A stretch of 64,000 nucleotides of DNA, taken from positions 1,600,001 to 1,664,000 of the forward strand of contig OY760175.1 in assembly GCA_963663165.1 (NCBI GenBank), in the 5' to 3' direction. The notes beneath the pieces are model-generated. The model had not been told where the DNA came from. It searched no databases and saw nothing but the letters and a program-made list of their open reading frames with translations. Below, piece after piece: positions 31,146 to 52,598 of this stretch; position 1 is the first letter of the stretch, and each line of letters begins with the position of its first letter. The position numbers and the translations under genes were made by a program. The stretch comes from an uncultured Desulfospira sp. Lineage in GTDB: Bacteria; Desulfobacterota; Desulfobacteria; Desulfobacterales; Desulfobacteraceae.

Positions 31146-31180
31146 TTTTTCTCCTTTAAATCATCCGGTTACATTTAAGT

Positions 31181-33277: not shown

Positions 33278-33387
33278 CCTCAATTCCCTAAAATTCCTTT
33301 CCCGGCCTTTATAGTATAGATCAGGGCCGGTTTTCAAGAATTTGGAAACCGGTTCGAGGGAAAGGGCAAAAAAAAGAAATTTTTCTC

Positions 33388-33430: not shown

Positions 33431-33495
33431 TAATGGAGCTTCACAAAAAAGTATTAAATAAACGAGACTTTCATCTTAATCAAATGGAGACAAAA

Positions 33496-35480: not shown

Positions 35481-36977
35481 TCATCCTTCATCCTTCACCC
35501 CTAATTCCAGGGCCTGGTCAATCAAGCGGCAAAGCTGCTCATAAGAGGGGACGCCCACATGGAGTTCCCCGTTGATGATCAGGGTGGGGGTGGATGTAAT
35601 GCCGGCCTGCCGGACGCCCTCAAGCGCCTGGTCCAGTCTTTCAAGTTCTTTGGGGTCAGCCGTGCATTCGTTGAACCGGGCCATGTCCAGGCCCAATTTC
35701 CGGGCATAGGCCAGGGCATCTTCAAAGGCGGGCTTTTCCCCTGAAAACAGCAGATCATGAAACGCCCAGAATTTTCCCTGCTCCTGGGCGCAGCCGGCAG
35801 ACAGGGCAAGCTTTTTGGCCCCGGCATGGATGCTTTCCAACGGGTTGTCTTTGAATACCCATTTAACTTTGTCTTTATAGGTTTCCCTGATCCGTTTGAC
35901 GGTTTCATGGCCCCTCCGGCAGGCGGGGCAAAGATAATCAGACAATTCGACCACCATCACCGGCGCATGGGAAGGGCCGGTTGACGGGCATCCCTCAATA
36001 ACCACGCGAGTGTTTGGCAATGGCGGCTTTTCCAGATGGACGGTTACCGGAAAGGTCTTCTTTAACTGTTCACAATGATTCAGAATCGCTTCGTTTTCCC
36101 CGGCCAGGGTCAGATACTGCCGGATTTTTTGTTTTATCTGCTGTTCACTGCCTGTCCAGTTTCCCCAGCGCCGGTATTGTCTGCTCTGATAATAATATGA
36201 AACGGTTGCATCATCCGGGGCCTTGGCCTTTGATGACAACTCCTTTGTGAGGGCCGCCACCGTAATCCCCTGTTGGGCCGCATCTTTTTCAAGCAGGATT
36301 TCATTGATCCGGTCATCCAGGGCCATTTCTTTCATTCGATAGATCTTGGTCTGCATTTGATAGAGCCTTGTGGTCAAAGGCTGTTCAATCTCTTCTCTGG
36401 TAATTTTTTGCCCATCCACCACGGCCAGGATATCTGACGTCGCTTCCAATGCGGCATGATCGGAAACCGCCCCGTAGGGTGACGCCACCAGGGCATCGGA
36501 AAAGACATAAAAGCAGAGTCCCAGGCTCAACATCCACGGCAGGCGTTTGGGATCAAAAAATGAAAAAAACAGGATGGACATCAGGATAAAATTTACGGCG
36601 CAAAGCACACAGACAAATTTCATCTTCACCATAATCACAATCAGAACCGCCTCGACGCCGCAGCCGGCCATGACGGCAAAAAACAGCCAGGAGGGACGGA
36701 TAAAGTATAAGAGCACAAGAGAAAGGTAATAGGCAATCCCCCACCAGGGAACCGGTATGCCCATCATGGTGTAAGGCACGGTTTCCCGGCACCCGTCACC
36801 AAATGCCCCGCAAAAAGAGGCAATCCATGCCACCCGGGTTTCAAAGGCCGACATGACGGCAGCCGCCACCCCGAGGGCAATCACAATGCCAATGGCCTTT
36901 TTAAAAAATGAAGATCTGTCTTTAAAAGGATTTTTCTGTGTGACGATATTGGGTTGATCTGTTTTGGGCTGCGCCAT
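35481..36977 (-). CDS. VKOR-DsbA/thioredoxin fusion membrane protein
   Basis: N-terminal TMs with C-X7-C loop and CVLC; C-terminal SDYLCPAC and STPT cis-Pro loop. Confidence 0.85.
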   Translation of the reverse strand: MAQPKTDQPNIVTQKNPFKDRSSFFKKAIGIVIALGVAAAVMSAFETRVAWIASFCGAFGDGCRETVPYTMMGIPVPWWGIAYYLSLVLLYFIRPSWLFFAVMAGCGVEAVLIVIMVKMKFVCVLCAVNFILMSILFFSFFDPKRLPWMLSLGLCFYVFSDALVASPYGAVSDHAALEATSDILAVVDGQKITREEIEQPLTTRLYQMQTKIYRMKEMALDDRINEILLEKDAAQQGITVAALTKELSSKAKAPDDATVSYYYQSRQYRRWGNWTGSEQQIKQKIRQYLTLAGENEAILNHCEQLKKTFPVTVHLEKPPLPNTRVVIEGCPSTGPSHAPVMVVELSDYLCPACRRGHETVKRIRETYKDKVKWVFKDNPLESIHAGAKKLALSAGCAQEQGKFWAFHDLLFSGEKPAFEDALAYARKLGLDMARFNECTADPKELERLDQALEGVRQAGITSTPTLIINGELHVGVPSYEQLCRLIDQALELGVKDEG

Positions 36978-37095: not shown

Positions 37096-37386
37096 CTACA
37101 CCCTGTTTTTCCAATGGCCGGGTTTTCGATGCAGAGTCATTACGGCAACGACTCGTATTTCAGGCGTTTTGATTCGATAAAGAACCGCATAAGGGAAATG
37201 GGAAAATAGATGCCTTCGGATATTACCTTCAATAACAGGCCATGTTTCCGGGAACTCAACTATATTCTTAACAGCAATATCCAAATCTTTTAAAAACTTA
37301 AAACCAAGGTTTTCTGCCTGGATTTCGTAATAAATGGCGGCATCCATCATCTCTTCCTCGGCTTCAGGATGATAAATTACTTGCAC
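37096..37386 (-). CDS. type II toxin, RelE/ParE family
   Basis: YHPEAEEEM.DA..YYE, RRH...FPY.V.Y, VAVM...RKPGHW. Confidence 0.88.
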   Translation of the reverse strand: MQVIYHPEAEEEMMDAAIYYEIQAENLGFKFLKDLDIAVKNIVEFPETWPVIEGNIRRHLFSHFPYAVLYRIKTPEIRVVAVMTLHRKPGHWKNRV

Positions 37387-37610
37387 GACAACGCCTTGGT
37401 TGCCGATTCCATTACTTCGGCATGGGTTTTACATGTCACTCTACCTGCAGATATCTCGCTATCCCTTCTTTTTGCCTCATCCATCCACAGTCTATTGTGA
37501 CTGACAATATCAACATCCACCAGGCTGTCCAGAAGAACGTCTGCCAGAATGGCCCTTGATTTTGGCGGCAAGGATAATGCTTGAGCCGTGACTTCCTCTA
37601 TAGTCGGCAT
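37377..37610 (-). CDS. addiction-module antitoxin
   Basis: ALSLP..SRA.LA..LLDSL, W..EA.RR..EI..G; overlaps the toxin start. Confidence 0.85.
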   Translation of the reverse strand: MPTIEEVTAQALSLPPKSRAILADVLLDSLVDVDIVSHNRLWMDEAKRRDSEISAGRVTCKTHAEVMESATKALSCK

Positions 37611-37843: not shown

Positions 37844-40060
37844 TTATTTTTTTTCAGGCGGCGGCAGTGCCGGGCGGCCGGACAGGGCGGGGCGGGCCGC
37901 GTTCACCACGGCGGTCAGGGTGACCAGGTTGTGGATCAGGGCCCCGGCCAGGGGCGAGATCATGCCGGCGACCATTAAAGAAAGGACAAGGGCATTGGCG
38001 CCCATGGCAAAGGCATAGCTTTGTTTGATCACGGACAGGGTGTTTTTGCTGGATTCCAGGGTCCAGGCCAGGCTGGACAGTCCGCCCTGCTGAAGGACGA
38101 TGTCGGCATACTCCAGGGTCACGTCTTCGCCGGCCTCGCCCACGGCAAAGCTCAAAGCCGCCCTTGAAAATGCCGGGGTGTCATTGATGCCGTCCCCGGC
38201 CATGGCCACCACGGAACCGGGAAAATCAGCTTTTCTTTTTTCGATCCACCGGGCTTTGTCCTCGGGGGACATGCCCCATTTCACCTCATCAAATTTAAGG
38301 GCACGGGACAGCTCAGTGGTTCCGGCCCGGGTGTCGCCGGTGAGCAGGGCAATGTGGGTGATCCCGGCCTTTCTTAACCGCGCCAGGGTCTTAGGGGTGG
38401 CATCCTTGCGGATCATGTGGGAAGCGTGGATACACCCCAGAAGATGGCCGTCACAGGCCACAAAGACCAGGCTGCCGGAATCATCGGGATCTTTCTCCCC
38501 TGCTCCGTGGCCGTTTTTCAGGATACCCCGGTCTTTCATGAATTTTTTGGAGCCGGCCAGAATGGTCCGGCTGCCCGTGGTTCCGGCAACCTGTGCCTTG
38601 ACCCCGAGTCCCACAAAATACTTTCTGGATTCACAGGCCGGCACCTCCAGGCCTGTTTCATGGGCCTTCCGGGTAACGGCCCGGCTGATGGGATGATTCC
38701 AGGGCTGGAGCGCGGCAGCGGCAAACCCGAGAATGGTCTCTGGTTTGTACCGCCGGTCCATCACCTCAATATCCGTCACACTGGATACAGACTCGGTCAG
38801 GGTTCCGGTTTTGTCCAGGGCCAACGTGTTCACCGTTGCCGCGGTTTCCACATGGGAGCCGCCTTTGATGAGAATCCCGTTGGCAGCGGCATTGCCCATG
38901 GCCGTGGAGATGCCTGTGGATGTGGACAGGCGCAGGACGCAGGGACAGGTGACCATAATAGAGGTAATGGCCAGGAACAGGGACCCGCTCATTAAAAAGA
39001 CAATGGCGGCAAGGCCCAAAGAGACAGGAACCATGGCCTGGGAAACGGAAAGGCTGGTCCGGCCCAGTTCTCCCAAGTCATCCCGGGCCGATTCAATGAG
39101 CCGGATAATGGCGGCCATCCGGGTCTGCTCCCCGGTTTTCTCCACGGTCACCCGGATTTCACCCTCTTCCACCAGGGTTCCGGCCATGACCGGCATGCCT
39201 TCAAGTTTCACCACGGGCAGGCTTTCACCGGTCATGGCCGCCTCGTTGACCAGGGCCGTGCCTGAAAAAACCGTTCCGTCCACGGGGATGGATGCGCCCT
39301 GGCCCAGGACAATGACGTCTCCGGGGACGATATCGGTGATATCCACCTGAACCTGTACTCCGTCCACCAGTTTCCAGACCCGGGTCTGTTTGCCGGTGAG
39401 CATGTCCCGGACCAGGCGGCCGGTATGGTCCTGGATCCTGGATTCCATCCATCCGGACAGGTTGTACAGCCAGGCCACCAGGAGCGCGGTCAGGATATTG
39501 CCGGTAAACAAAGAGACATACAGCAGACCCGTAGAGATCAGGCTCATGTCCACGCGGCCCGTGGCCTTTACGTTTTCCACGGCCTGGCGCTGGATGGGCC
39601 GGGCCAGATAAAGGGTCAAAAGCCCCGGGATGCTGATGATCCCCCCGATAAGGGCGGCAGAGGAAAAGAGGGGGGCGGCGGCCCGCCGGAGCAGAAGAAA
39701 GGAAAGATAAAGCCCGGAAAACAACAAGGTCATGCCGGACACGTGGGACCGGCACAGCTGGGGGTCCTTTTCCGAACCAGACTTAATACTTTTGGAATCT
39801 GCCGTACCTTCCATGAGGCCGGTCAGTTTCCGGGAAAGGCCGTTGACCAGTTCGATGACCTGCCGGACCGGTATATCCCGGTCCGGATGGACCAGAATCA
39901 AAGACCCGGACTTGGGCCTGACCTGGGCCATGGCCACCCCGTCCATCCGGGCCAGTTCTTTTTCCACGGCCTTGCAACAGGCCGGCTGGCCCCGGAAAAT
40001 CGAAAACTGAATCCGGGTCCGGTATGGTTCCGCCTGCCGGATTTTATAACTTAGTGTCAC
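37844..40060 (-). CDS. P1B-type ATPase (TCPC type) in fez-like cluster
   Basis: TGES, TCPC, DKTGT, HP, TGD, GDGIND, LIHN; N-terminal RxR/HMA-like domain. Confidence 0.9.
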   Translation of the reverse strand: MTLSYKIRQAEPYRTRIQFSIFRGQPACCKAVEKELARMDGVAMAQVRPKSGSLILVHPDRDIPVRQVIELVNGLSRKLTGLMEGTADSKSIKSGSEKDPQLCRSHVSGMTLLFSGLYLSFLLLRRAAAPLFSSAALIGGIISIPGLLTLYLARPIQRQAVENVKATGRVDMSLISTGLLYVSLFTGNILTALLVAWLYNLSGWMESRIQDHTGRLVRDMLTGKQTRVWKLVDGVQVQVDITDIVPGDVIVLGQGASIPVDGTVFSGTALVNEAAMTGESLPVVKLEGMPVMAGTLVEEGEIRVTVEKTGEQTRMAAIIRLIESARDDLGELGRTSLSVSQAMVPVSLGLAAIVFLMSGSLFLAITSIMVTCPCVLRLSTSTGISTAMGNAAANGILIKGGSHVETAATVNTLALDKTGTLTESVSSVTDIEVMDRRYKPETILGFAAAALQPWNHPISRAVTRKAHETGLEVPACESRKYFVGLGVKAQVAGTTGSRTILAGSKKFMKDRGILKNGHGAGEKDPDDSGSLVFVACDGHLLGCIHASHMIRKDATPKTLARLRKAGITHIALLTGDTRAGTTELSRALKFDEVKWGMSPEDKARWIEKRKADFPGSVVAMAGDGINDTPAFSRAALSFAVGEAGEDVTLEYADIVLQQGGLSSLAWTLESSKNTLSVIKQSYAFAMGANALVLSLMVAGMISPLAGALIHNLVTLTAVVNAARPALSGRPALPPPEKK

Positions 40061-40407
40061 TTCTTACCCGCGGCTTCTGCCTCCACCTCCGCCTTGGCAT
40101 CCTCATACTTTTCTTTCATCTCTTCAATACCCGCCGAAGTCGCCGCCATCACCTTGGAAAAGGTTTTAACCACGGCTTTTTGAACGGTTTCATTGGTCAC
40201 CAGAAGGGTGACGCCGGCGCCAAGGGCCGCGCCCTTCCAGAAGGTGGCAGAGGTTACATCAAGACTTAAAAAAGAGGTGGGGGCGGGGACATAGGCCTGC
40301 TGCTGTGCCATGGGCTGCTGGGGATACACCGGCACATAGCTGACCTTATCCTGGGCCTGGGCGTAGGTTTGGGCCTGATAGGCCCCCTGGGCTTGATCAA
40401 TACTCAT
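40057..40407 (-). CDS. small Gly-rich membrane protein (FWKG..GA..TLL.TN motif, YtxH/Fez-like)
   Basis: Q/P/Y-rich N-terminus, GxxxG TM, C-terminal amphipathic/coiled helix; overlaps the ATPase start. Confidence 0.75.
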   Translation of the reverse strand: MSIDQAQGAYQAQTYAQAQDKVSYVPVYPQQPMAQQQAYVPAPTSFLSLDVTSATFWKGAALGAGVTLLVTNETVQKAVVKTFSKVMAATSAGIEEMKEKYEDAKAEVEAEAAGKK

Positions 40408-40522
40408 CTTGAAATCTCCCTTTCTCGAAAGGATGAAGGCTGACGGATGAAGGATGAAAATGGCTCATCCGGCAGTCTTCGTTACTTTCAAAGTTCATCT
40501 ATTATATTCTGGTCTCTAATAA

Positions 40523-40933
40523 CTAAAACTTATTAATCAAATAACTGACGCCGGTAGCGGCGGCAATGGTGACGGCAAGTCCGGCCACCCCGCCGTTGGT
40601 CAGGGTAGATGAGGCGGCGGTGGCGGTGGCGGCGGCCACGCCGCCGATAGCCCCTTTGGCCAGACTGTCGGTCATGGCCTGGCCCATGGTCATTTCACCC
40701 TTGCCCACCCGGTTCAAATTGGCACCCAAGGTCCCGGTGGTGACCACGATCATGCCGAACATGCCGGCTGCGGCGGCCTGGTTGGCAATGGCCGAAGTGG
40801 TTATTTTAGTGGGGTACTGAACCGGAACGGCCTGCACACTGGTGTTCACCGGTACATACTGGTGCAGCGGCACGGTCTGGTAGGCCATGGTCTGGATGCC
40901 CGAAGGCTGTTGGGTTGCGTATAAATGTTCCAT
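40523..40933 (-). CDS. MamC-like membrane protein
   Basis: GTLGANL..V..GEMT...A..DSLAKGA.GG.A.A...TGVSY pattern resembling MamC/Mms13; AAGGAA RBS. Confidence 0.7.
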   Translation of the reverse strand: MEHLYATQQPSGIQTMAYQTVPLHQYVPVNTSVQAVPVQYPTKITTSAIANQAAAAGMFGMIVVTTGTLGANLNRVGKGEMTMGQAMTDSLAKGAIGGVAAATATAASSTLTNGGVAGLAVTIAAATGVSYLINKF

Positions 40934-41013
40934 ATATAGTTTCCTTTTTTTTAAGTGATCAGGCTAAAGGGGGTCAGACTGAGGGTTGCCGACGCTCAAT
41001 CAGCATCGCCGCT

Positions 41014-41688
41014 TCATCCTTCATCCTTTTTCACAGTTCCCCCAAAAATTCCGCCAAATGTTTTCCCCATGGCATTTTTGACCGACTTGTTCGTGAGCAG
41101 AACCGTGGCTGCGGCCCCGACCAGGGCGCCTTTCCAGAACTGGTCATCCTGGGAGGTTTCCGAGTACAGGGTCTTGACCACATCGGCTACAGTGGCGTCG
41201 CCTTCGGCAAAATCCTCAACAGATTTAATCACCCGGGCATAATCGGGCGGGGCCTGCTGTGCGGCGGCAGGGTCCTGGGCCTGGTAAGGGGCCTGCCCTA
41301 AAGAGGACTGGACCGCCATTCCCGCCGGCACCGCATAGGTATAATACAACTGGCCGGTGCGGGGGTCCATGACCAGGCCTGTGGGCTGGGCGGCCATGCC
41401 CTGGGCCTGGCCGGTTTCAGGCTGCTGGACACCCGGGGCGGCCTGGGATTGGCCGGCATAGTCCGGGTGAATGCCCTGGGCGGTTGTACCGGCAGGGTTA
41501 ACGGTTTCCCGGGCCTGTCCGGCCGGGGGGGCCTGATGATCGGCGGCTGCGGCCTGACCGGGTGAAACGCCCGGGGCCGGATTCTCCGGAGCCGGGCCGC
41601 CCGGGGCCGCTGCCTGATCCGTGCTGTGGCCAGATTGGGCCTGGCCCGGGGCCTGATGTAAGGTGGGGTTACTGGTTGGGGCTTCCAT
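41014..41688 (-). CDS. Pro/Gln/Ala-rich protein with C-terminal FWKG Gly-rich TM
   Basis: ~150 aa low-complexity region then QFWKGALVGAAATVLLTN; AGGAGG RBS. Confidence 0.75.
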   Translation of the reverse strand: MEAPTSNPTLHQAPGQAQSGHSTDQAAAPGGPAPENPAPGVSPGQAAAADHQAPPAGQARETVNPAGTTAQGIHPDYAGQSQAAPGVQQPETGQAQGMAAQPTGLVMDPRTGQLYYTYAVPAGMAVQSSLGQAPYQAQDPAAAQQAPPDYARVIKSVEDFAEGDATVADVVKTLYSETSQDDQFWKGALVGAAATVLLTNKSVKNAMGKTFGGIFGGTVKKDEG

Positions 41689-41818
41689 GGTTTACCTCCT
41701 GAAGCGCTTCTTTTATCATACTGATTAAACCTGCCGAAAAGAAATCGTCGGGCAGGCTCTTTATGGATTCAATGATGATCAATTAAAAAGGTTGCGAATT
41801 GAAATAGTTATAAAATAT

Positions 41819-42355
41819 TTATCCATCATGCACAAGAACGAATCCCCCCCTGCCCCGGATGTCCACAATATCCCTTACCGTCAGGAAGAGCAGCCTTGGG
41901 GCCTTAAGCCCGTATGCCTTGAACGACCATTTAAAAGCAAGGTCAATGGTTATTTTTCCGGATTCTTTTGCCACATAAAAGGTAATGGGCAATTGCCGGC
42001 GTTCTCCGATAAATTCGAGGACCGCAAGGATGTCGGCCCTGTAACGGCCGTCATCCTGAAGGACGAATTCCTTGCATTCCGTCATCTCAACTGAGGCTTC
42101 CGGGAATTTTTCCTGCTGCATGTAATCGACCATGGCCTTGTTCCGGTCGGCATACCCGGTGTCAAAAAACCGGGTCTGGGCCGTGGCCGAAGCGTTAAGG
42201 ATTTCAAGATGTTGAAAATCTATGCTGATTTGGGCGTCAATGCCCTTGATGCTCCACCCTTTAAAGGTGTGAAAAGGGGCATAGGCCGTAAAATCAACCC
42301 TGAAATCCCGGGACAGGGTATAGGCGTCTAATGTTTTTTCAATTTGGCAAGTCAA
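41819..42355 (-). CDS. YceI-family protein (no signal peptide)
   Basis: V.F......H.FKG, FDTG..DRN..M...M..EKFP, F.AYGL..P; overlaps the ATPase stop. Confidence 0.75.
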   Translation of the reverse strand: MTCQIEKTLDAYTLSRDFRVDFTAYAPFHTFKGWSIKGIDAQISIDFQHLEILNASATAQTRFFDTGYADRNKAMVDYMQQEKFPEASVEMTECKEFVLQDDGRYRADILAVLEFIGERRQLPITFYVAKESGKITIDLAFKWSFKAYGLKAPRLLFLTVRDIVDIRGRGGFVLVHDG

Positions 42356-44657
42356 TCGGTTGTCCTTTCCGGGGGGGGATTTCGCCCTTGGTTTTGCCTG
42401 ACAGGGTATCCGGATTTTTATTTTGTTTCATGGGTTCTGACGGGGGTTCCCAGGTCAGAAGGCGGCCGGAATTGACTAGAATCCCCCCGGTGTGGAAAAT
42501 ATGAATCATCCCGGCCATGACCGGCGAAAGAATGCCCAACATGCCCAGCGCCGCACCAATAAGATCAGTAGATACAGCAAAATAGTGGTTCTGGTCAATA
42601 ACTTTCATGGTCTGGTGGCTTAAATTTCGCACTTTGACCAGCCCTTCCAGGTTGGCATCGGCCAGGGCGATGTCGGCCGCCTCCAGGGCAACTTCAGCCC
42701 CGCCGGCCCCTACGGCCACGCCGATATCGGCCCGGGCAAGGGCCAACGCATCGTTGACGCCATCCCCGATCATGGCCACCATGTGGTCTTTTTTCAATTC
42801 CTCCACCCGATCGGCTTTTTCTTCGGGCAGAAGCGGGGCCCGGCAATCGTCAAAGGGGAATATATCCATCATGGTCTGGGCCACCTCTTTGTTGTCGCCG
42901 GTGACCAGGTGGATGGATCTGACCCCGTCGGCCTTGAGATGGTTCAACACGGCCACGGCTTCAGGCCGGATGGGGTTGGCAATACCCATCATGCCCGTGG
43001 CACTGCCGTTTTTGGATACAAAGATGACCGTTCGGCCCTTGTTTCGTTCAGCCGCCGCCTTTTTATCAAACCAGCGAAGATCCACCTCGTTTTCTTCCAT
43101 GAACTGCCGGTTGCCCACCAGGACCACTTCCTCACAGCCGATATTGCAGGAAACCCCCCGACCGGCCTTGAATTCACAGACGGCGTGGGCCTCAACGTCC
43201 AGGTTTCTCTTTTTGGCTTCAGCCAGGATGGCCCGGGCCATGGGGTGCTGGTTATGGGACTCGGCCGTGGCCGCAAGGGACAGGATCATGTTTTCGGAAA
43301 TGGACGGGGTCCGGCCGGTAATGGTCATGATCTCGGGCAGGTCCTGGGTTAAGGTGCCGGTCTTGTCAAAGCAGAAGACATCGGTTTTGCCCACCCCTTC
43401 AAGATAAAGGCCCCCTTTAATAAGGATGGAGTGTTTGGCGGCATTGGCCAGGGAGGCGGTAACCGCCGACGATGCGGCCAGGACCGTGGCACAGGGACAG
43501 GACATGACCAGCATGACCGTCAGCGCCCGCAGAGGATCCAGGGTAAACACCAGGGTGGCCAGGGTGGCGGCAAGCCCGATCTTAAGCAGCCGGGCCGCCA
43601 GTTCATCGGCCTTGTGTTCGGCCGGGGCCTTGTTGGCCAAAGAATCCTCCACCATTCTCATGATACCGGCAAGGTAGGTGTCTTCTCCGGTTTTTACGGT
43701 CCTTATAAATAAGGTCCCCTGGGAAATAATGGTGCCGGCATAAACCTTGTCCCCGATATTTTTCACCACGGCCTCGGCCCTGCCGTTAATGGTGGCCTCG
43801 TCCACTAAGGCGTCCCCGTCCAGGATTGTACCGTCCACCGGGATCTTCTCCCCGGTATGGGCGGCCACAATATCATCCACGCGGATCTGCGCCACCGGGG
43901 TTTCCACTTCCATGCCGTCGACCATCACATAGGCATTGGGCGGGGTAACGTCCAGGATATCCCTGATGGCCTTGCGGGACCGCTGGGCCACATAGTCTTC
44001 CGTGGTCTCGGCCACATTGTATATCCAGAGGATCTGGATGGCGGAAAAGGCCTCTCCCATGCAGATGGTGGCAATGGCACCGGCGGCCAGAAAGGGTTTA
44101 ACCGTCACCTTTTTCTTTTGGGCCGTATCCGCAATTGCCTCTTTGACCAGGGGAATAGTGCCGGCCATGGCGGCCAGGCCCAAAAAGCTCAAGGGATTCT
44201 GGGCCAGAACCGCACCGAAAACAAACCGGCGGACAACGGCATAAACCATGACAGAGGACAGCCATGCCACTCTTTTTAATTTGGTCCCAAATCCGGCGTC
44301 ACCGGCGCATTCGCACGCCAGGATATCTGCGGCAGGCCCGGCAGCGGGTTCCAGATCGAATTTTTTCGGGGATAATACCTGGCTGAGGATGGCGGCCATA
44401 ATGGTTCGCGCGGTTACTGCCGACGAATCAAAGGTAACAATGACGGACCCGGAAACCGATCTGGCCTCGGCCCCTGTAATTCCGTCAACCCCTTTCAGGT
44501 AAAGGGCCATCCATCCGGATTTTTTTTCATTGTACCGAAGGGCTTTTACCTGAACCCGCATCCGCCCGGCCATGGACTGCCGGACACAGATCCCGTTCTT
44601 GCTCAAAATACTTTTACTGATATAGCTTACACTATTATATTTTTTGTTATTCATCAA
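42339..44657 (-). CDS. P1B-type ATPase (SCPC type) with non-canonical A-domain motif
   Basis: SCPC, DKTGT, HP, TGD, GDGVND, HIFHT; TGES replaced by NGRA; N-terminal GRMRV domain. Confidence 0.9.
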   Translation of the reverse strand: MMNNKKYNSVSYISKSILSKNGICVRQSMAGRMRVQVKALRYNEKKSGWMALYLKGVDGITGAEARSVSGSVIVTFDSSAVTARTIMAAILSQVLSPKKFDLEPAAGPAADILACECAGDAGFGTKLKRVAWLSSVMVYAVVRRFVFGAVLAQNPLSFLGLAAMAGTIPLVKEAIADTAQKKKVTVKPFLAAGAIATICMGEAFSAIQILWIYNVAETTEDYVAQRSRKAIRDILDVTPPNAYVMVDGMEVETPVAQIRVDDIVAAHTGEKIPVDGTILDGDALVDEATINGRAEAVVKNIGDKVYAGTIISQGTLFIRTVKTGEDTYLAGIMRMVEDSLANKAPAEHKADELAARLLKIGLAATLATLVFTLDPLRALTVMLVMSCPCATVLAASSAVTASLANAAKHSILIKGGLYLEGVGKTDVFCFDKTGTLTQDLPEIMTITGRTPSISENMILSLAATAESHNQHPMARAILAEAKKRNLDVEAHAVCEFKAGRGVSCNIGCEEVVLVGNRQFMEENEVDLRWFDKKAAAERNKGRTVIFVSKNGSATGMMGIANPIRPEAVAVLNHLKADGVRSIHLVTGDNKEVAQTMMDIFPFDDCRAPLLPEEKADRVEELKKDHMVAMIGDGVNDALALARADIGVAVGAGGAEVALEAADIALADANLEGLVKVRNLSHQTMKVIDQNHYFAVSTDLIGAALGMLGILSPVMAGMIHIFHTGGILVNSGRLLTWEPPSEPMKQNKNPDTLSGKTKGEIPPRKGQPIDLPN

Positions 44658-44709
44658 ATTAATATCCTTTAAATTGCCAATTTAACAGTCTGATTATATA
44701 GCCTATTTT

Positions 44710-44846
44710 GTTAGTAAAATCAAACTATTATTTGATAATTTTAAAAGGCCGGGGGGCGTCATAAAGTTACCTATAGTTAAAATCTCCTTTAAAATTAAGA
44801 GGTTGACACCCATCAAACCCTGATTTATTATATACCTGACGCTAAA
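44710..44846. promoter_or_regulatory. divergent promoter region with degenerate TTAG-N6-CTAA sites
   Basis: GTTAGTAAAATCAAAC 44710-25; GTTACCTATAGTTAAA 44766-81; plus-strand TTGACA 44803-08, 17 nt spacer, TATTAT 44826-31. Confidence 0.55.
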
Positions 44847-44899
44847 ATTAAGTGTCCGAAAGTTCTTAATCAAATTTAAAGCTTTAAAAGGAGGATATT

Positions 44900-45073
44900 A
44901 TGTTTTATCTGCCCCTTACCACAAACCCATTGGGATGGGTAATCCTTGGCGTGGGCGGTTATGCCCTGTACAAGGCTGGAAAGAAAAAAGGTGAGGACGA
45001 GGCAGCTGCCTCCCAGATCACCGAACCTCCTGCCGATGATAAGGCAAAACCAGAAACCAAAGGAGCCAAATAA
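44900..45073 (+). CDS. 57-aa single-TM microprotein (NPLGW motif), not in the ORF track
   Basis: AAGGAGG RBS; MFYLPLTTNPLGWVILGVGGYALYKAGKKKGEDE...; TAATG coupling to its paralog. Confidence 0.8.
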   Translation: MFYLPLTTNPLGWVILGVGGYALYKAGKKKGEDEAAASQITEPPADDKAKPETKGAK

Positions 45074-45351
45074 TGAGCGTTCCCGTATATGCCCCCGCAC
45101 TGGCCGTTAACCCCTTAGGATGGGCCGTAATCGGTGCCGCCGGATATGTGACCTATAAAGCCGGGAAAAAAGCCGGTAACAATTCCCAGGAAAAAGCCGT
45201 CAAACCCGGGCTGGCCGACAGGGCCATCAAAGGCGCCATGAAAACTGTTTACCGGGCAAAGAAGAGTGTAAGTGAATCTTTTGGCAAAAGCCGGGAAAAA
45301 TATTCCAGCATGTGGAGTGAAGCCCAGGAAGAAGTTAAAGCAGCAGAATAA
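45073..45351 (+). CDS. small single-TM protein (NPLGW motif, FezA-like architecture)
   Basis: NPLGWAVIGAAGYVTYKAGKK then amphipathic helix ending EAQEE. Confidence 0.75.
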   Translation: MSVPVYAPALAVNPLGWAVIGAAGYVTYKAGKKAGNNSQEKAVKPGLADRAIKGAMKTVYRAKKSVSESFGKSREKYSSMWSEAQEEVKAAE

Positions 45352-45420
45352 TCAGCTGCCAGCCATTAGCGGTTAGCCTTTCGTGGTCAGCCGTTTGCTT
45401 AGAATCTTTCTTTAACCGCC

Positions 45421-45471
45421 AAGGCCCCGAGGATGTTCTTAAAATCGCCTTTCATCAACGGGGCCTTTTTT
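45421..45471. terminator. hairpin terminator between convergent genes
   Basis: aaggccccg/cggggcctt stem plus T-tract. Confidence 0.55.
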
Positions 45472-46193
45472 TATTCTCCTGTTCTGACAATCACTGCGCC
45501 GGCTTTTTCGTGGGCCAGGTAAAGTCGCAGCCCTTGAGGGCTGGACACGGTAACGGACTGGGTTCTCGGGGCATGAAGTCCCTGGGCCGCCTCCACGGTT
45601 TCAAGGACCAGGCTCACCCCCGGGGTGACCCCGTGGGTTTTCAAATGGCGGACCCCTTGAGGCCCCCCCATGATATCGGTCACCTCAAAGGCCTGGTTGG
45701 GTTTGGCGAAGTAGAACTGGCTCTTTTGCCCTTTTTCGCAGAATCCCCATATTTTGGCAGCTTCCCCTTCGGACAGCCGGGTCCGTTCCTTCCGGTTGAT
45801 CACGGTGATGTAATCCATGTGGGGCAGGGCCCGTAAAAATTTAATCTGAGTGTCTTCCTTGAGCCCGAGCCGCTCCAGGCTTTCCGCCAAGTACACGCCC
45901 CCGGAATGGATTTCAATATGGGCTTCCTGGTTTTTTTTCATTTCCGTTAAAGGAATGATGTTGCCGTCGTTTAAGTGGGCATAGACCTTTGTGGCCAGGC
46001 CGGCGGGAAGAACCACATCCCCTTTGGGCCCCCTGACCCGGACAGAGTAATAGTTAAAATCCTGGTCATGGCGGGTCAGTTTTCCGCCCACAAACAGGCC
46101 GAGCCGGTTCAGCCAGGTTTCAAGGGAAGGTTCGGTGATCTCCAGGATGACCAGCTCTGTATTGATGGGTGCATCAAGCAAGGATGAATACAT
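45471..46193 (-). CDS. multi-FeoA-domain protein
   Basis: Three FeoA/SH3-like units: LNRLGLFVG, LERLGLKED, LKTHGVTPG; start uncertain (46193 or 46226). Confidence 0.75.
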   Translation of the reverse strand: MYSSLLDAPINTELVILEITEPSLETWLNRLGLFVGGKLTRHDQDFNYYSVRVRGPKGDVVLPAGLATKVYAHLNDGNIIPLTEMKKNQEAHIEIHSGGVYLAESLERLGLKEDTQIKFLRALPHMDYITVINRKERTRLSEGEAAKIWGFCEKGQKSQFYFAKPNQAFEVTDIMGGPQGVRHLKTHGVTPGVSLVLETVEAAQGLHAPRTQSVTVSSPQGLRLYLAHEKAGAVIVRTGE

Positions 46194-46237
46194 GGGTTTT
46201 ATATTTTCCTGATGGTCTGGTTTCAAGGCACAGGGGC

Positions 46238-48391
46238 TTATTTCTTTTCCCCGGCCTTACGGTTATTTTGTTCCGGGCTTTCACCCGCTTTGGACTGCTG
46301 CTCTTCAATGCCTTTCAAGGGCTGCTTTTCCCTTAACCCCGCATAGGACAGAATCCCCACCGTGCTGGTATTATGAAGGATGGCGGCGGTGACCGGGTTG
46401 ATCAATCCAAAGGTGGCCAGCATCAGGAAGAGCGAGTTAAGCCCCACAGCAGAAACAAAGCTGTGTTTAATGGTATCCTGGCACCGCAGGGCGATTTCCC
46501 GCCCGGCCAACAGACAGTTTAAGTTCTCCTGCATTAATATCACCTGGGCCGACTCCTTGGCAAGGTCCGCCCCTGAGGGCAGGCAGATGCCCACATGGGC
46601 CGATACCAGGGCCGGTGCATCGTTGACCCCGTCGCCGATAAACCCGAGATACGCCCCCTCTTTTTTAAGGTCTTCCACAATGGCGGCCTTGTCCTCGGGC
46701 TTAAGTTCGGCCCTGACCTCGTCCACGGCCGGCAGTTCTTTGGCAAGCGCCTTTGCCGTAACTTCCGTATCCCCGGTAAGAATGATAATCTTTTTAATAC
46801 CTGTTTTTTTCAAATTGTCCAGAACTTTTGGCGCTTCGGGCCGGAGTTCATCCCTTAACCCCAGTATTCCCACAAGCTTTTCTTCCCTTGTCACATAGAG
46901 CAGGCTCTTGCCCTGCTTTTGAAAGGCCAGGGCCGGTTTGTCCACCAGGGAGCAGTCAATGCCTTCATCATCTTCAACAAAATGGCGGGATCCCACCAGG
47001 ATATTGTCGTTGCTGATATAGGCCGACACCCCGTGGGCCACCACAAAGTCCACCTGGCTGGTGGGGGGCAGGTCAAGCCCCTTTTCTCTGGCAGCCCGTA
47101 CCACGGCGCGGGCGGCCGGGTGGGAGTAATGTTCCTCTGCTGAAGCGGCCAGGGCCAGTACCTCATCCGGGGCCATGCCGTTCACCGTGTGAACGTCGGT
47201 CACGGTCAGCTCTCCTTTGGTCAATGTGCCGGTCTTGTCAAAGACCAGGGTATCCAGCCGGGCCAGACTGTCCATGGCCTGGGAGCCTTTGAGCAGAACC
47301 CCCTGCCGGGCCGCCGTGTACATGGCCACCCTTACCGCCACCGGGCTGGACAATTTGATCACACAGGAATAGTCCACGGTAAGAACGGCGGCCGCCTTTT
47401 CCAGATCCCGGGTCAATCCGAAAAGGCCGACCCCCAACCCCAAGGTAACCGGGACCAGCTTGTCGGCGAGTTCATCGCTTTTCTTCTGGGCTTCGGATTC
47501 GTAATTGAGGGAGTCTTCCAAAAATTTGGAAATCCGGGCCACCGAAGTTTCAGCGCCCACTTTCAGGGCCTTGAACACGATCCGCCCGTCTTCAATGACC
47601 GACCCTGAAATCACCTCAGTACCGGGCTTCACATGAACGGGAACAGATTCGCCGGTGACGGAACTCTGGTTCACGGCAGCCTCGCCCCTGACCACCACCC
47701 CGTCCAGAGGAATCATCTCGCCGGGCCCGCAGACCACCTGGTCTCCGATCCTTGCATCATTAAAGGGGATCTGGACCTCCTGGCCGTCCACCTCTATCCA
47801 GATATGTTCGGTCTCGGGCTTGAGCAGGCTTTTCAGCAATTTGTTGGTCCGGTTCTCGCTGAGCGCTTCCAGGTATTCCCCCAGGGAAAGCAAAAATACA
47901 ATGGTTGCGGCCGTAAAATAATCCCTGCGGAACAAGGAAAAGGCCACGGCTGATCCGTCCAGGACCTCCACACTGATTTTACGGTTTACCAGACAGACCA
48001 GGGCATCGATCATAACCGGCAGGGACAGTATCAGGGCGATGGGCATGCAGCCCAGAGCCGGCAGAACCAGACAGCTTGCGGCAAGGGCCCCTTTTGCGGC
48101 CAGATTAATCAAAGACGGGCCGTTTTTCCGGTTGTTTTTCCCGTTAAAGGCATCCAGGGGCAGGTCACTGATACAGGCCAGAATCGAAGACCTTGTTTCA
48201 GGCCGGCCGTCATACCGGGCGATAATGGAGGATGCCCGGGTATTGATCCGGGCATTTTCAACCCCGGGGATGCCTTCAAGGCGAGCCTCCAGAAAATCCG
48301 GGTCCAGTTCCGGGTCCCTTAAAAACCGCCCCTTAAGGCGGATCCGGTGGGGCAGTTCATTGACGATCTGAACCGGACGCGGCGCCATCAT
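46238..48391 (-). CDS. fezB: P1B-6 ATPase, ferrosome FezB-type
   Basis: VDYSCVIKL TM motif, LHN..T, TGES, DKTGT, GDGVND, N-terminal HRIRLK motif. Confidence 0.85.
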   Translation of the reverse strand: MMAPRPVQIVNELPHRIRLKGRFLRDPELDPDFLEARLEGIPGVENARINTRASSIIARYDGRPETRSSILACISDLPLDAFNGKNNRKNGPSLINLAAKGALAASCLVLPALGCMPIALILSLPVMIDALVCLVNRKISVEVLDGSAVAFSLFRRDYFTAATIVFLLSLGEYLEALSENRTNKLLKSLLKPETEHIWIEVDGQEVQIPFNDARIGDQVVCGPGEMIPLDGVVVRGEAAVNQSSVTGESVPVHVKPGTEVISGSVIEDGRIVFKALKVGAETSVARISKFLEDSLNYESEAQKKSDELADKLVPVTLGLGVGLFGLTRDLEKAAAVLTVDYSCVIKLSSPVAVRVAMYTAARQGVLLKGSQAMDSLARLDTLVFDKTGTLTKGELTVTDVHTVNGMAPDEVLALAASAEEHYSHPAARAVVRAAREKGLDLPPTSQVDFVVAHGVSAYISNDNILVGSRHFVEDDEGIDCSLVDKPALAFQKQGKSLLYVTREEKLVGILGLRDELRPEAPKVLDNLKKTGIKKIIILTGDTEVTAKALAKELPAVDEVRAELKPEDKAAIVEDLKKEGAYLGFIGDGVNDAPALVSAHVGICLPSGADLAKESAQVILMQENLNCLLAGREIALRCQDTIKHSFVSAVGLNSLFLMLATFGLINPVTAAILHNTSTVGILSYAGLREKQPLKGIEEQQSKAGESPEQNNRKAGEKK

Positions 48392-48816
48392 GGGGCCCCG
48401 TCCTTTCCGGCATGGGGTTTGGGCTTCATGGCCCGGTCAATGGCATAGCCGGCCCCGGCCAGAGCCGCTGCGGTCAGGGCAATTTCCCATACGGTCTTTT
48501 TGGGGGTCAGGGATAAAATCACCGTGGCGGCAGCGCCTTTGGCAATGCCGTTGACCACGGCCTTTGTTCCGGTCATGGTGTTGTTCTGCACATCCACCAT
48601 GTTGGCGCCGATGGTGGCGGCACTGGCTATGGCCAGGGTGGCCGCAGCAAATTCCAGGGGGGTGTAGGTATCCTGGGGGATGGGGATGGGGGCAAAAAAA
48701 GGCCCCGGTGCAGGGGTTAACGCAAGCCCGGTTCCATCAGAAGTTAAAAAGACCGGCCGGGCTGATCCGGCGGCGATCCCGGGAGCGCCGCCGGCCGTAT
48801 TCATCTGGGTTTTCAT
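48388..48816 (-). CDS. MamC-like membrane protein
   Basis: TIGANM..V....MT...A...GIAKGA...AGAGYAID, paralogous to 40523-40933; ATGA overlap with fezB. Confidence 0.65.
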   Translation of the reverse strand: MKTQMNTAGGAPGIAAGSARPVFLTSDGTGLALTPAPGPFFAPIPIPQDTYTPLEFAAATLAIASAATIGANMVDVQNNTMTGTKAVVNGIAKGAAATVILSLTPKKTVWEIALTAAALAGAGYAIDRAMKPKPHAGKDGAP

Positions 48817-48934: not shown

Positions 48935-49444
48935 CTATACCGCGTCACAGCATATTGATTCACACATGGGTTCCCTGTCCGGTTCGCCAAAAATGCTTAA
49001 AATCCGGTCTGCTGTGACCTTGGCCGCAATGCAGGATTTGGTTTCTGCGGTAATCCCAAGCCGGCCGCCGGTGTCCATGGGCTCATAGCCGTAAGCCGTG
49101 CGCACCACCTTTTCATAGGCGCAACGAAGCTGCCGGAAAGAGGCCTCAACTTCCGGGTATTCATTGGAGGCCCGGAAAGGCAGCCGGATAAAATCCTCAA
49201 TTTCCCCTCTTTTAAAGTGGGGAACACTCAAATAATGGAACCGTTCAGGCTGCCAGCCGGGGCGCCGCTCGTTTGTCCCGGGCATGCAGGTGCTTGAATG
49301 GGAATCGGGCACCACCGGGATGCTGCTCTCGATGCTCACCGCATTGACGGCCAATTTTTTTTCAAAATCCTCAAGGATCAGGGAGTATTTCAGAAAAGGC
49401 CTGAAATTGCCGCGTTTTTTCGTTATGGTCCAGTTGATCTGCAT
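48935..49444 (-). CDS. hypothetical protein, third gene of the AAA/VWA operon
   Basis: GGAG RBS, start MQINW 4 nt after the VWA gene stop; no recognised domain. Confidence 0.7.
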   Translation of the reverse strand: MQINWTITKKRGNFRPFLKYSLILEDFEKKLAVNAVSIESSIPVVPDSHSSTCMPGTNERRPGWQPERFHYLSVPHFKRGEIEDFIRLPFRASNEYPEVEASFRQLRCAYEKVVRTAYGYEPMDTGGRLGITAETKSCIAAKVTADRILSIFGEPDREPMCESICCDAV

Positions 49445-49448
49445 AAGT

Positions 49449-50723
49449 TTAACTCTCCAGACAGATGGTGTTGCCAAAGGGCGGTTTACTGCCGCCGGGA
49501 CCGGCCCCGCCGGGACCTGTCTTTACCCAGAGGACCGGGTATGGGGGCCGGTTTGAAGGAAACAATTTACATTCAAGATCGGTCAGGTAAATCAGGCAGG
49601 CCGGGCTGACCCGCTGATCAGCGATAAACTCAAAGGCCGGGCGAAAATCGGTTCCCCCGCCCCCTTTGGGCTCAAACTTTATGGGCAGGTCCCACTGATT
49701 AAACACCTGATACCGGTTCACGGCCATATCCGTATACAACAGGTGAAGCTTGGACGGGAAACATTCCAGAATGGCAGATAGTTCTGCGGCAAACTGGTCC
49801 AGTTCTTCGGGCAGGACAGACCCTGAGGTATCAAGGGCCACAGCCAGTTCGCTCAACTCATGGGTGTTCAAAGAGGGAAAATAAAGGTTCTGGTGAATAT
49901 ACCGCCGGTTGGGCGTGGTCCAGGAGTAATCCGACCGGGCTGAATTCTGGATAAACCGGGACAAAAGCTGCCGCCACCCCAGTTTGGGATTAATCCTTTC
50001 CTGGACCAGCCGCTCCAGCCCCTTTGGCAGCTTTCCCATGCGCCGGGCATTGGCCGCGGCCTGGACCAGGGCCTGGTCCCAGTCAATGTCCTCATCTTCC
50101 CCGGTTCCCGGCGCATCTTCCAGGTCCCGGACCTCGCCGGCCATGCCCGGATCAGTTCCGGGATCTTCCTGATTTTCATCCTGGCCGGTATTTCCCGGGT
50201 CATCAAGTGGCAACGGGTTTCGGCCCTGTTCGGGATCTGTCTCTTTCAGGGCTTCACTGTTGGGGTCGCCGACTTGCCCACCCCTGTCCTCTTCATTTTT
50301 CTCATCCGCCAGGGTCTGATAAACCGCATCGGCGCTTTTGTTCCGGAACCTGTCATCAAACAAAAACCCGTCGGGCAGGTCCATGCCCGCGTCCAAAAGA
50401 ATGGGATTAACGGCATAATCACAGGCCCGGTTCCACAGATCCTTGTCCCGGCTGCCGCGCCGTATGTGGTGGCCGCAGGCCGGGTGCATGACCGTATGGG
50501 CGCAAAGGCCGATGAGCTTTTGCCTTGGCAGGGTGCTGATGTAAGAAGGGTTATAGGCAAATACCCGGCCGTCGGTCCAGGCGGTGTGGCAGGAAGGGTC
50601 CGGCGTGACCTTTAACCTAAGGGCCAGGGACGCAAAAAACGGCTGGGCCATGACCATGGAAATCCTGGCCCGGACCACCCGGTCATGGGCAGACTGTTCT
50701 ATGGAGGAAAGGGGCTTGATCAT
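49449..50723 (-). CDS. DUF2201-type protein: metallopeptidase-like N-domain plus VWA domain
   Basis: TAWTDG, HTVMH...H, WN.ACDYAVN; acidic linker; LDTSGS, GGGTDF, YLTD (MIDAS). Confidence 0.85.
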   Translation of the reverse strand: MIKPLSSIEQSAHDRVVRARISMVMAQPFFASLALRLKVTPDPSCHTAWTDGRVFAYNPSYISTLPRQKLIGLCAHTVMHPACGHHIRRGSRDKDLWNRACDYAVNPILLDAGMDLPDGFLFDDRFRNKSADAVYQTLADEKNEEDRGGQVGDPNSEALKETDPEQGRNPLPLDDPGNTGQDENQEDPGTDPGMAGEVRDLEDAPGTGEDEDIDWDQALVQAAANARRMGKLPKGLERLVQERINPKLGWRQLLSRFIQNSARSDYSWTTPNRRYIHQNLYFPSLNTHELSELAVALDTSGSVLPEELDQFAAELSAILECFPSKLHLLYTDMAVNRYQVFNQWDLPIKFEPKGGGGTDFRPAFEFIADQRVSPACLIYLTDLECKLFPSNRPPYPVLWVKTGPGGAGPGGSKPPFGNTICLES

Positions 50724-51703
50724 ACCAGAACTTGGGCATGGCATGAGGCCCAGTCTGCGAAGGCCGGGGTCCGGACCAGGCCGGCATGTTTACGGACCGC
50801 CTCCCGAACCAGGAGAACGGAAAATTCTACGGGCAGCCGGGATGCCCAGGCCATGACGGGGTCGGCGGTATCTTCTTTAAGGGCATGGCTCATCATTTCG
50901 CACAGGGCAAAGAGGACCGCCGGATCTTTGGGGATCTCAATGCCCTCAGGGTCTTCTATAATATCGGCGGCTTCGGGAAGGCAATGCCAGATTTTTAGAA
51001 ATCCTGAAAACTCTGCGGCAGCGCCCTTGCCCACGGCACCGGCCACCATGGAACCAAGAAGGCCCGGGTCAGGAGCGGCCTTTACCAGCCTTGAGACAAA
51101 TTCCCAGGACCTTGGGGAAGGAAAGGCCCGGTCGTCTTTTTCAGGATCAAAATCGTGGAGCAGGGCGGGCCGGAAACGAATAAAGGCAACGACCTCCGGT
51201 GCAATGGCATTGGCACCGGCCCAGGTGAGCCAGTCCGGCACATCCACCTCAAATTCCAGATGAACAAACCGGTTGGCCAGGGCCGAGGGCATGCGATGGG
51301 AAACGGCCCGGTCCTGCTCCCGGTTGCCGGCAGCGATCACAGACCAGCCTTCAGGGAGCTCATACTCCCCTAACCGGCGGTCAAGGACTAACTGGTAACA
51401 GGCCGCCTGAACCAGGGGAGGCGCCGCGTTCAGTTCATCCAAAAACAGCACCCCCCTGCCCTGCCGGGGAAGAAAGCCCGGGGCGCACCATTGGGAGACC
51501 CCGTCCGGGGTGATCTTAGGGATTCCCCGTAAATCCACAGGGTCCAGGAGAATGGCCCGGATGTCAATGAGGGAGAGGGACAAAGCATCGGCGGTCTGCC
51601 GGACCACCTGGCTCTTTCCAATGCCCGGCGGACCCCAGAGAAACGCGGGCTGCCGGATGTCAAGCAAGGTATTCAGGGCCGTTGAAATTTGGGATGGCTT
51701 CAT
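50720..51703 (-). CDS. MoxR-like AAA+ ATPase
   Basis: WGPPGIGKS, DLRG.P, LFLDEL, AAGNR, ALANRF, SPRSWE. Confidence 0.9.
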   Translation of the reverse strand: MKPSQISTALNTLLDIRQPAFLWGPPGIGKSQVVRQTADALSLSLIDIRAILLDPVDLRGIPKITPDGVSQWCAPGFLPRQGRGVLFLDELNAAPPLVQAACYQLVLDRRLGEYELPEGWSVIAAGNREQDRAVSHRMPSALANRFVHLEFEVDVPDWLTWAGANAIAPEVVAFIRFRPALLHDFDPEKDDRAFPSPRSWEFVSRLVKAAPDPGLLGSMVAGAVGKGAAAEFSGFLKIWHCLPEAADIIEDPEGIEIPKDPAVLFALCEMMSHALKEDTADPVMAWASRLPVEFSVLLVREAVRKHAGLVRTPAFADWASCHAQVLV

Positions 51704-52231: not shown

Positions 52232-52486
52232 TTATTTTTTTATTTCCGTCTCATTTTCAAGTGCTTTCTGCTGCTTTTTGACTCTTTTTTCAGGCTGGTA
52301 CAAGAAGTGATGCCAGAGGGCGGCCCCGGCCAGCAGGGCACCGGCACCGGTGTGGATGTTTTTTAAAGTCCTGGAACGGTTCCCCTTTAAAAACGGAGCC
52401 GTGATGACGGCCACCCCGAGGGAGGCGGTCATGGCAATTTTGGCAATTTCTTTTTTAGTCTCGAGATCGAGCGGCTTTTCTGGCAT
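52232..52486 (-). CDS. small two-TM membrane protein with His residues
   Basis: KKEIAKIAMTASLG...IHTGAG.LL.GA.LWHH.LY. Confidence 0.7.
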   Translation of the reverse strand: MPEKPLDLETKKEIAKIAMTASLGVAVITAPFLKGNRSRTLKNIHTGAGALLAGAALWHHFLYQPEKRVKKQQKALENETEIKK

Positions 52487-52598
52487 TTCTTCGTTTTTTT
52501 CTCTGGATGGTTTTTTTAGTGCCTTTCCCGGTTTCAACAGCAAGGGCACAGGTCAGTACGGTTGCAACCCCACAGACGATAGGAATAAATGGTGCCAT
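52455..52598 (-). CDS. 47-aa membrane-anchored basic microprotein, not in the ORF track
   Basis: GGGAGG RBS; MAPFIPIVCGVATVLTCALAVETGKGTKKTIQRKKRRNARKAARSRD. Confidence 0.6.
   Translation of the reverse strand: MAPFIPIVCGVATVLTCALAVETGKGTKKTIQRKKRRNARKAARSRD

Follow-up and report, generated by a model that had tools for sequence, protein, structure and literature searches.

The window analysed here, a whole stretch of 64,000 nucleotides from an uncultured Desulfospira sp. (contig OY760175.1), carries a cluster of 11 genes at positions 37844-48816, as read from its open reading frames and their translations, which probably encodes a ferrosome-type (fez-like) iron storage system, i.e., a lipid-bounded compartment, in an enlarged and composite form. 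The cluster is built around three P1B-type ATPases (ATP1, ATP2, and ATP3), accompanied by three pairs of small proteins (s116/s224, s57/s92, and s136/s142), a YceI-like protein and a protein with three FeoA-like domains. All are encoded on the minus strand except the s57/s92 pair, which lies on the plus strand, opposite to the other cluster genes. The complete genome (6.74 Mb) contains five P1B-ATPase genes, three of which are found within these 11 kb. The span given by the initial annotation, 37844-48816, does hold the genes described for it but leaves out a further member, s105 (52232-52549, minus strand), which is displaced from the rest in the present genome.

All three pumps score above the cut-off of 346 bits for TIGR01525, the NCBIfam heavy-metal P1B model (ATP1 432, ATP2 454, and ATP3 493 bits), as expected from the initial annotation, and the N-terminal RxR motif that it proposed for each is present in ATP3 (HRIRLK), ATP2 (GRMRVQ), and ATP1 (YRTRIQ). 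The pumps are 27-32% identical to each other in pairwise comparison, and CxxC is absent from the first 150 residues of each. ATP3 (46238-48391, 717 amino acids, aa) is the pump for which DYSC..KL and HN..T had been claimed; it reads DYSCVIKL in transmembrane segment 4 (TM4) and HNTST in TM6, with the arginine-rich HRIRLK at residues 15-20 and with DKTGT, TGES, TGD, and GDGVND all present (492.7 bits before rounding). The preprint text defines FezB by D[Y/F]SC in TM4, HNxxT in TM6 and an arginine-rich N-terminus (Grant & Komeili, bioRxiv 10.1101/2020.01.10.902569), and ATP3 fits this published FezB/P1B-6 sequence definition. ATP1 (37844-40060, 738 aa) has TCPC in TM4, HNLVT in TM6 and an intact TGES, and represents a rare third clade; like ATP3, it retains every catalytic motif. 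ATP2 (42339-44657, 772 aa), for which the ATG at 44654 is the likelier start, has an HMA_2 N-domain, SCPC in TM4 and HIFHT in TM6, and carries NGRA in place of TGES, the feature for which we refer to its relatives as the “TGR” family.

The three pumps are also distinct by descent. In a tree of 95 P-type ATPases (≥600 residues) drawn from 45 fetched loci as well as from the window and its genome (IQ-TREE quick, LG+G4), they fall into separately supported clades (100, 100, and 99, with the ATP1 clade at 100), which are jointly set apart (97) from the CopA-like pump and the 617-aa pump of the same genome. The ATP3 clade is the largest with 40 rows, all of which have D[YF][SAG]C at TM4 followed by A or V (V in the window), and its TM6 carries HNxxT (consensus LHN.sT). 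The 33 rows of the ATP2 clade are marked by M[SA]CPCATVL in TM4, an Asp in TM5 and H-I-x-H-T in TM6, and the 18 rows of the ATP1 clade by [TA]CPC in TM4 and HNxxT in TM6.

The arrangement is conserved well beyond this genome. A search of species-representative genomes with ATP2 gave 24 related loci and one outgroup, onto which all window proteins were mapped. Three pumps in the order of the window were found in 13 of the 24, from Desulfobacteraceae and Desulfobulbales, and this is therefore not a chance arrangement; the larger three-pump variant proposed by the initial annotation is borne out to this extent. These loci come from Desulfospira (L001), Desulfobacter (L003, L004, L005, L016), and Desulfobulbaceae and Desulfocapsaceae (L010, L011, L012, L018, L020, L022, L023, L024), and their pumps are 42-77% identical to those of the window (94-97% in L001). 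Among the remaining loci, two are cut at the FezB side (L002, L015), five end short of the ATP1 position (L007, L008, L013, L014, L019), one continues for 1.5 kb beyond s116 with ATP1 not present there (L017), and three have space available with ATP1 absent (L006, L009, L021). The iron context recurs too, with feoB near the cluster in 12 loci and a flavodoxin gene in eight. The nearby feoAB and flavodoxin genes of the window, pointed out previously, lie at 53020-55902 on the minus strand (feoB 53020-55551, feoA 55609-55902; a ferrous iron importer) and at 33433-33939 on the plus strand, respectively.

Prevalence was estimated from 400 evenly sampled genomes of the phylum, in which ATP3-type pumps were found in 11 genomes at E ≤1e-200 (with 13 more between 1e-119 and 1e-142), ATP2-type pumps in 22 and ATP1-type pumps in four. 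Smaller clusters were also seen: FezB with an HMA_2 protein as a minimal form (L036, L039, L040), FezB-only clusters in which the small proteins of the window recur (L026, L027, L035), two-pump clusters with an ATP2-type pump, s224, s116, s105, FezB, and FeoA (L028-L034), FezB-less clusters with ATP2 and ATP1 together with s224, s136, and s116 (L044, L045) or with s116 only (L052), and an ATP1-only cluster with s224, s136, s116, and s105 (L056). A FezB-type pump was not found in G267 (99% complete), one of the FezB-less cases with ATP2 and ATP1. As the modules are also found separately, the cluster of the window is therefore best described as a union of modules sharing one small-protein toolkit. 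On sequence grounds, the FezB module consists of ATP3, the translationally coupled MamC-like s142 and the three-domain FeoA protein, and the second module of ATP2, YceI, s224, s136, s116, and ATP1 with the divergent s57-s92 operon; the latter stands alone in genomes where a FezB-type pump was not found. In the ATP1 and ATP2 trees, Desulfobacteraceae form one group nested among Desulfobulbales (in the ATP3 tree this node has no resolution), and the sample holds one other genome from the family of the window, where a FezB-type match was not found (best E 5e-61). Together these suggest that the whole cluster was transferred between orders.

At the A-domain loop, 32 of the 33 ATP2-clade pumps have Arg ([NTS]G-R; NGRA in the window) and one has Val (G-V), whereas [TS]GE is kept in all 40 FezB-clade and all 18 ATP1-clade pumps. 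In an independent HMMER alignment, this Arg lines up with the SGEP Glu of the solved A. fulgidus CopA (3j08). The comparison was extended worldwide by a search of 1.84 billion representative proteins, from which 149 rows were aligned (146 hits and the three window pumps); Arg occupies the TGES Glu site in 33 of them, 28 of which also have xPCAT in TM4, and in a 26-row clade (100, FastTree) the residue here is Arg, Gln, or Asn in 25 rows. ATP2 belongs to a pump family of worldwide occurrence that has Arg instead of the catalytic Glu. DKTGT, TGD, GDGVND, and the HP motif are all retained, so selection maintains the family as a phosphorylatable protein; ATP2 has the DKTGT, TGD, and GDGxND expected of a catalytically complete P-type ATPase but lacks the TGES Glu, a residue usually required to complete the pumping cycle. 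TGES is described as the built-in phosphatase of P-type ATPases (PMC10654040), and with Arg for Glu at this position we infer that ATP2 dephosphorylates slowly or not at all.

Pumps of the ATP2 type are also met in other company. In five loci (L048, L051, L053, L055, L062) they lie 2-6 kb from P2-type pumps of ~1030-1085 aa with AVPEGLP and an intact TGES, which suggests that the Arg-substituted family also partners calcium-type pumps. The idea that an ATP2-type pump is always beside a competent pump was rejected, as a second pump was absent from six of 14 further fetched stretches with an ATP2-type pump, several of the six being at contig ends. Separately, four long proteins (P0032, P0040, P0048, P0103; 1628-1706 aa) look like fusions of a degenerate P1B-like half without CPC to a P2-type ATPase half.

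The six small proteins were initially described as Gly-rich membrane proteins in three paralogous pairs. The pairs stand (blastp E 1e-9 for s116 and s224, 2e-10 for s57 and s92, and 0.03 for s136 and s142, with the families of the last pair matching at 97.3% probability, E 1.9e-11 over 84 columns in a profile-profile comparison), however, the proteins are richer in Ala (14-22%) than in Gly (5-12%), and two clear transmembrane segments were found by hydropathy scan only in s136 and s142. GxxxG is present in the hydrophobic segments of s116 (GAALG), s224 (GALVG), s136 (GAIGG and GGVAG), and s142 (GIAKG), as in the small proteins of fez clusters. s116 (40057-40407) has a single hydrophobic segment with GxxxG (FWKGAALGAG) and a Glu/Ala-rich helical tail, and its paralog s224 (41014-41688) has a long Pro/Gln/Ala-rich N-terminal part before a FWKGAxVGAA segment; FWKGAxxGA...LLxTN, including the GxxxG, is common to both, and members of the s116 family carry a conserved C-terminal tail, EEMKEKFEDAKAEAxAE. 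s57 (44900-45073) joins an NPLGWxILGxGGY hydrophobic segment to a GEDEAAA tail, and s92 (45073-45351) is its paralog with a longer amphipathic tail, the segment common to the two being NPLGWxILGxGGYxLYKAGKK. The build of s116 and s57, a lone hydrophobic segment with a Glu/Ala-rich tail behind it (EDAKAEVEAEAA and GEDEAAA, respectively), has the PacL-like layout of a single membrane segment, a Gly motif and a Glu/Ala-rich tail encoded beside a P1B pump. PacL itself is DUF1490, to which weak Pfam matches were obtained in two of 121 small proteins (best E 0.00045), along with an Atlas lead of 0.83 for s92. Weak DUF5132/YtxH-like matches of s116 fall under the cut-off, as do the DUF6203 and DUF1490 hints, and NCBIfam gave no consistent family for the 121 small proteins of the s116/s224, s57/s92, and s105 families.

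s136 (40523-40933) and s142 (48388-48816) are two-transmembrane paralogs that share a hairpin with a conserved loop, as MamC-type proteins do by hydropathy and alignment, and G70, V76, A86, and G94 are invariant among 39 sequences of the two families. The magnetosome MamC model NF038051 is matched at E ≤0.1 by 21 of the 39 (best E 1.8e-14). These matches belong to the s136 branch (13 looked at singly) and extend over almost all of the model (positions 4-88 of 97), with a two-transmembrane hairpin of ~100 residues in common, but their scores of 16.8-53.8 bits (window s136 16.8, best relative, in L045, 53.8) fall far short of the cut-off of 100 bits. The s142 branch did not match the model directly, Pfam gave no consistent family for s136/s142, and in the whole genome, where MamC was the sole magnetosome family searched, only s136 matched the model, below the cut-off. 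The pair is thus a MamC-like family, not MamC itself.

s105, a DUF4405-like small membrane protein, has homologs within or next to the cluster in 20 loci and belongs to its gene set; the DUF4405 matches of its family are weak (nine of 121 scanned proteins, best E 0.0016). Between s105 and s142, at 48935-51703, lie genes for an AAA_5 (MoxR-like) ATPase and a DUF2201 metallopeptidase/VWA protein, and an overlapping 180-aa open reading frame without a known family. This trio was rejected as a core member, as it adjoins the cluster in L001 and L018 only.

The triple-FeoA protein of the initial annotation (45471-46226, 251 aa) was confirmed in the sense that one domain is significant and two are weak, with a structural model that matches solved FeoA structures. 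On the whole sequence PF04023 scores 48.7 bits against a cut-off of 23, in the central domain, and when taken alone each third matches only FeoA in Pfam, with E values of 0.14, 4.5e-7, and 0.032. Internal profile comparisons gave E values of 2.5e-5, 9e-4, and 0.017, and two homologs have three matched stretches. The AlphaFold model (pLDDT 86.2, pTM 0.76) has three similar strand-helix-strand, SH3-like modules, and its structural matches (VIA-align) are FeoA proteins at Z 10.9 (3e19), 10.7, and 10.1 (7r7b), the best with an rmsd of 1.8 Å over 73 residues. It also matches the FeoA-like domains of DtxR-type regulators, and unrelated rows reach Z ≤4.4; a Foldseek search with the full model found no match at E ≤0.001. 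The YceI protein was likewise correctly called (41819-42355; PF04264 33.5 bits against a cut-off of 23.7), and a signal peptide is not evident. A YceI-family open reading frame is found in 18 loci, downstream of ATP2 where mapped. In Desulfobulbales, an extra gene for a stand-alone HMA_2/R-rich domain follows YceI or ATP2 (L010 12889-13071, L012 13080-13322, L021 7714-7923), which the window lacks.

The cluster is likely read from at least three transcription units. Stop and start codons overlap between s142 and ATP3, s116 and ATP1, and ATP2 and YceI (17 bases), and gaps of 80-130 bp separate YceI, s224, s136, and s116. The s57/s92 pair is preceded by a strong sigma-70-like promoter (TTGACA-17-TATTAT, 44803-44831, plus strand), whose −35 element (TTGACA or CTTGACA) is found again in 17 printed orthologous regions, and a terminator-like hairpin with a T run (45447-45464, plus strand) lies between the convergent s92 and FeoA genes. 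An inverted repeat, ATCAAA-N6-TTTGAT, overlaps the likely ATP2 promoter (~44720-44740) and is a candidate operator; apart from this repeat, no shared operator was found by eye among the promoter regions. In the divergent regions of four Desulfobulbales loci (L008, L013, L014, L022) the repeat reads TTGTT(T)-N-(A)AACAA, with a conserved TAAGAT downstream.

How does this compare to what has been described? According to the preprint text, fez clusters range from fezABC in D. magneticus and six-gene operons in S. putrefaciens and R. palustris to larger ones with FezH, in all “two to ten genes” with “a second” ATPase, FezH, in some, and the accessory families that it names are GxxxG proteins, a FeoA-domain protein, DUF4405, and a second R-rich P1B-ATPase (bioRxiv 10.1101/2020.01.10.902569). 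The cluster of the window has in common with these the P1B-6 pump signatures, GxxxG proteins, a FeoA-domain and a DUF4405-like protein, a second R-rich P1B-ATPase, feo nearby and an anaerobic host. It differs in having three pumps and 11-12 genes on both strands and in the absence of a stand-alone FezC-type protein from the window, and the main text of the preprint mentions neither YceI-like and MamC-like members nor a “third” pump; in the parts of that text examined, including the passages around FezH, an Arg-for-Glu change in the TGES of the second pump is not described. As with FezH, ATP2-type pumps are partners of FezB in seven two-pump loci (L028-L034) and have an R-rich N-terminus with different transmembrane sites; however, compared by the preprint's description only, ATP2 (GRMRVQ, SCPC, HIFHT) and ATP1 (YRTRIQ, TCPC, HNLVT) fit FezH equally well and belong to different clades. 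Within the literature searched, the name FezH in a ferrosome context was found only in the Grant & Komeili preprint, and among the listed publications on ferrosomes and Desulfobacter, fez cluster architecture was not the topic of the titles and abstract openings. New points here are the modular composition, the Arg-for-Glu change of ATP2, the MamC-like pair and the additional gene of DUF4405 type; the initial annotation had missed these, as well as the PacL-like build of the remaining small proteins. The published tables cover ten genes to each side of 304 FezB homologs, and these proteins may well be among them.

If the cluster does build an iron storage compartment, FeoAB would import Fe(II), and the FeoA-like protein and the Cys-free R-rich N-domains would hand it to the pumps, acting in delivery or in regulation. 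ATP3 and ATP1 would pump metal into the vesicle lumen, with s116, s224, s57, and s92 acting in a PacL-like manner as scaffolds that stabilise and cluster the pumps (a binding prediction for s116 with the ATP1 N-domain, residues 1-105, scored 0.20 where the mark is 0.32), and the MamC-like and DUF4405-like two-transmembrane proteins would organise the membrane or mineral. ATP2, without efficient hydrolysis of its aspartyl-phosphate, would be a slow or regulatory partner and not a free-running pump. In the most integrated version of this scheme the three pumps form one machine in a single organelle, in which FezB and ATP1 load, ATP2 is a latch or gate set by ATP (e.g., for iron release or partner switching), and the MamC-like and PacL-like proteins serve to shape the mineral and to bring the pumps together; we consider this version decidedly unlikely as it stands.

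Several observations weigh against a ferrosome-type system. The place of ATP3 in the FezB clade rests on motifs; in the trees, which cover pumps of the window, its genome, fetched loci and worldwide representatives, ATP3 groups only with DYxC-bearing pumps. A Fur box (E. coli 19-mer consensus, up to four mismatches) was not found in the whole window, and the cluster promoters gave no hit. ATP2-type pumps occur beside P2-type pumps in five loci and with no second pump in six (several at contig ends), and are therefore not tied to iron clusters. The match of the window's s136 to MamC reaches only E 0.006-0.013 and would not stand alone, because the model matches eight of 14 control genomes at E ≤1, and the DUF4405, DUF5132, and YtxH matches are all under curated cut-offs. 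Lastly, the CPC-type sites of ATP1 and ATP2 resemble those of CtpC, a pump with CPC and HNx(S/T), a Cys-free N-domain and a “P1B-6-like” label, reported to export Zn at the plasma membrane with the scaffold PacL1 (PMC13460109), so that an efflux platform could account for part of the cluster.

This last point leads to the main rival, in which two systems sit side by side: a FezB module that builds ferrosomes, and ATP1 and ATP2 with PacL-like proteins as a plasma-membrane effluxosome for Zn, Co, Cd, or excess Fe. The M. tuberculosis PacL-Ctp effluxosomes, as the review presents them, share with the cluster P1B pumps that have Cys-free N-domains and are each encoded with a small single-segment membrane protein with a Gly motif and Glu/Ala repeats (PMC13460109). 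ATP1 has CPC and HNxxT as CtpC does, s116 and s57 have the single segment and Glu/Ala-rich tail, with s116 translationally coupled to ATP1, the ATP1/ATP2 module is found without FezB, and Ni/Co transport genes lie on the left flank. However, effluxosomes are Zn/Cd efflux platforms in the plasma membrane, not storage vesicles, and in the same source they have no FezB, FeoA, or MamC-like partner (PMC13460109). The two modules remain joined, with their gene order unchanged, at 13 loci belonging to two orders, the s224, s136, s116, and s105 families also accompany the FezB-only L027 and L035, and a FezB-less cluster is again beside feoAB (L044). Just two of 121 small proteins match DUF1490, weakly, and no metal-sensing MerR/ArsR-type regulator was seen among the scanned open reading frames. 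We therefore regard two separate systems as rather unlikely, and favour a ferrosome-type system.

It is also conceivable that the compartment holds not iron phosphate but another metal or mineral, or several metals with one ion per pump. Magnetosome MamC-like proteins act on crystal growth, and the pumps have three site signatures (DYSC/HNTST, SCPC/HIFHT with the TM5 Asp, and TCPC/HNLVT); ATP2-type pumps moreover pair elsewhere with Ca-type P2 pumps. The context is nevertheless one of iron, given feoAB, the FeoA-domain protein and flavodoxin, and the characterised fez clusters treated in the preprint texts all store iron (bioRxiv 10.1101/2020.01.10.902569; 2026 preprint), which leaves this alternative very unlikely. 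That the genes are neighbours by gene transfer only, without a joint function, is highly improbable: the GC content (0.563 in the cluster vs. 0.51-0.52 in the flanks), a ParE/antitoxin pair at one edge and a patchy distribution in the order, with the other sampled genome of the family lacking a FezB-type match, would fit, but the order is kept over the 13 loci despite pumps 42-77% identical to those of the window (94-97% in L001), stop/start overlaps join s142 to ATP3, s116 to ATP1 and ATP2 to YceI, and the three pump trees give similar groupings of the same loci.

Beyond the cluster, the left flank (28826-33337) is a metal-uptake neighbourhood with genes for DUF1007 and a NicO-family permease, two DUF4198 proteins and an outer-membrane beta-barrel protein. 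A 498-aa protein encoded at 35481-36977 has a multi-Cys membrane part at its N-terminus, together with a region resembling SurA_N and a DsbA/thioredoxin domain. Directly downstream of ATP1, at 37096-37610, lie genes for a ParE-type toxin and its antitoxin (PF05016, PF09720), which have their own strong promoter-like site at 37729-37701. A strong foreign-DNA signal was considered and rejected, the GC difference being modest.

Ferrosomes have been recognised only recently, and how they are filled, shaped and emptied is largely unexplained. The loci described here form a natural comparison set, with one-, two-, and three-pump versions assembled from the same small-protein toolkit, and the carriers include two type strains in culture, Desulfobacter curvatus DSM 3379 and D. 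vibrioformis DSM 8776. A pump family that has the phosphorylation site but not the dephosphorylation Glu could show that a P-type ATPase may serve in regulation or gating. Furthermore, the MamC-like and PacL-like members suggest components common to iron-storage vesicles, magnetosomes, and metal-efflux platforms. If the three pumps did turn out to work as one machine, ferrosomes, magnetosomes, and mycobacterial effluxosomes would be tied to a single toolkit for organising pumps.

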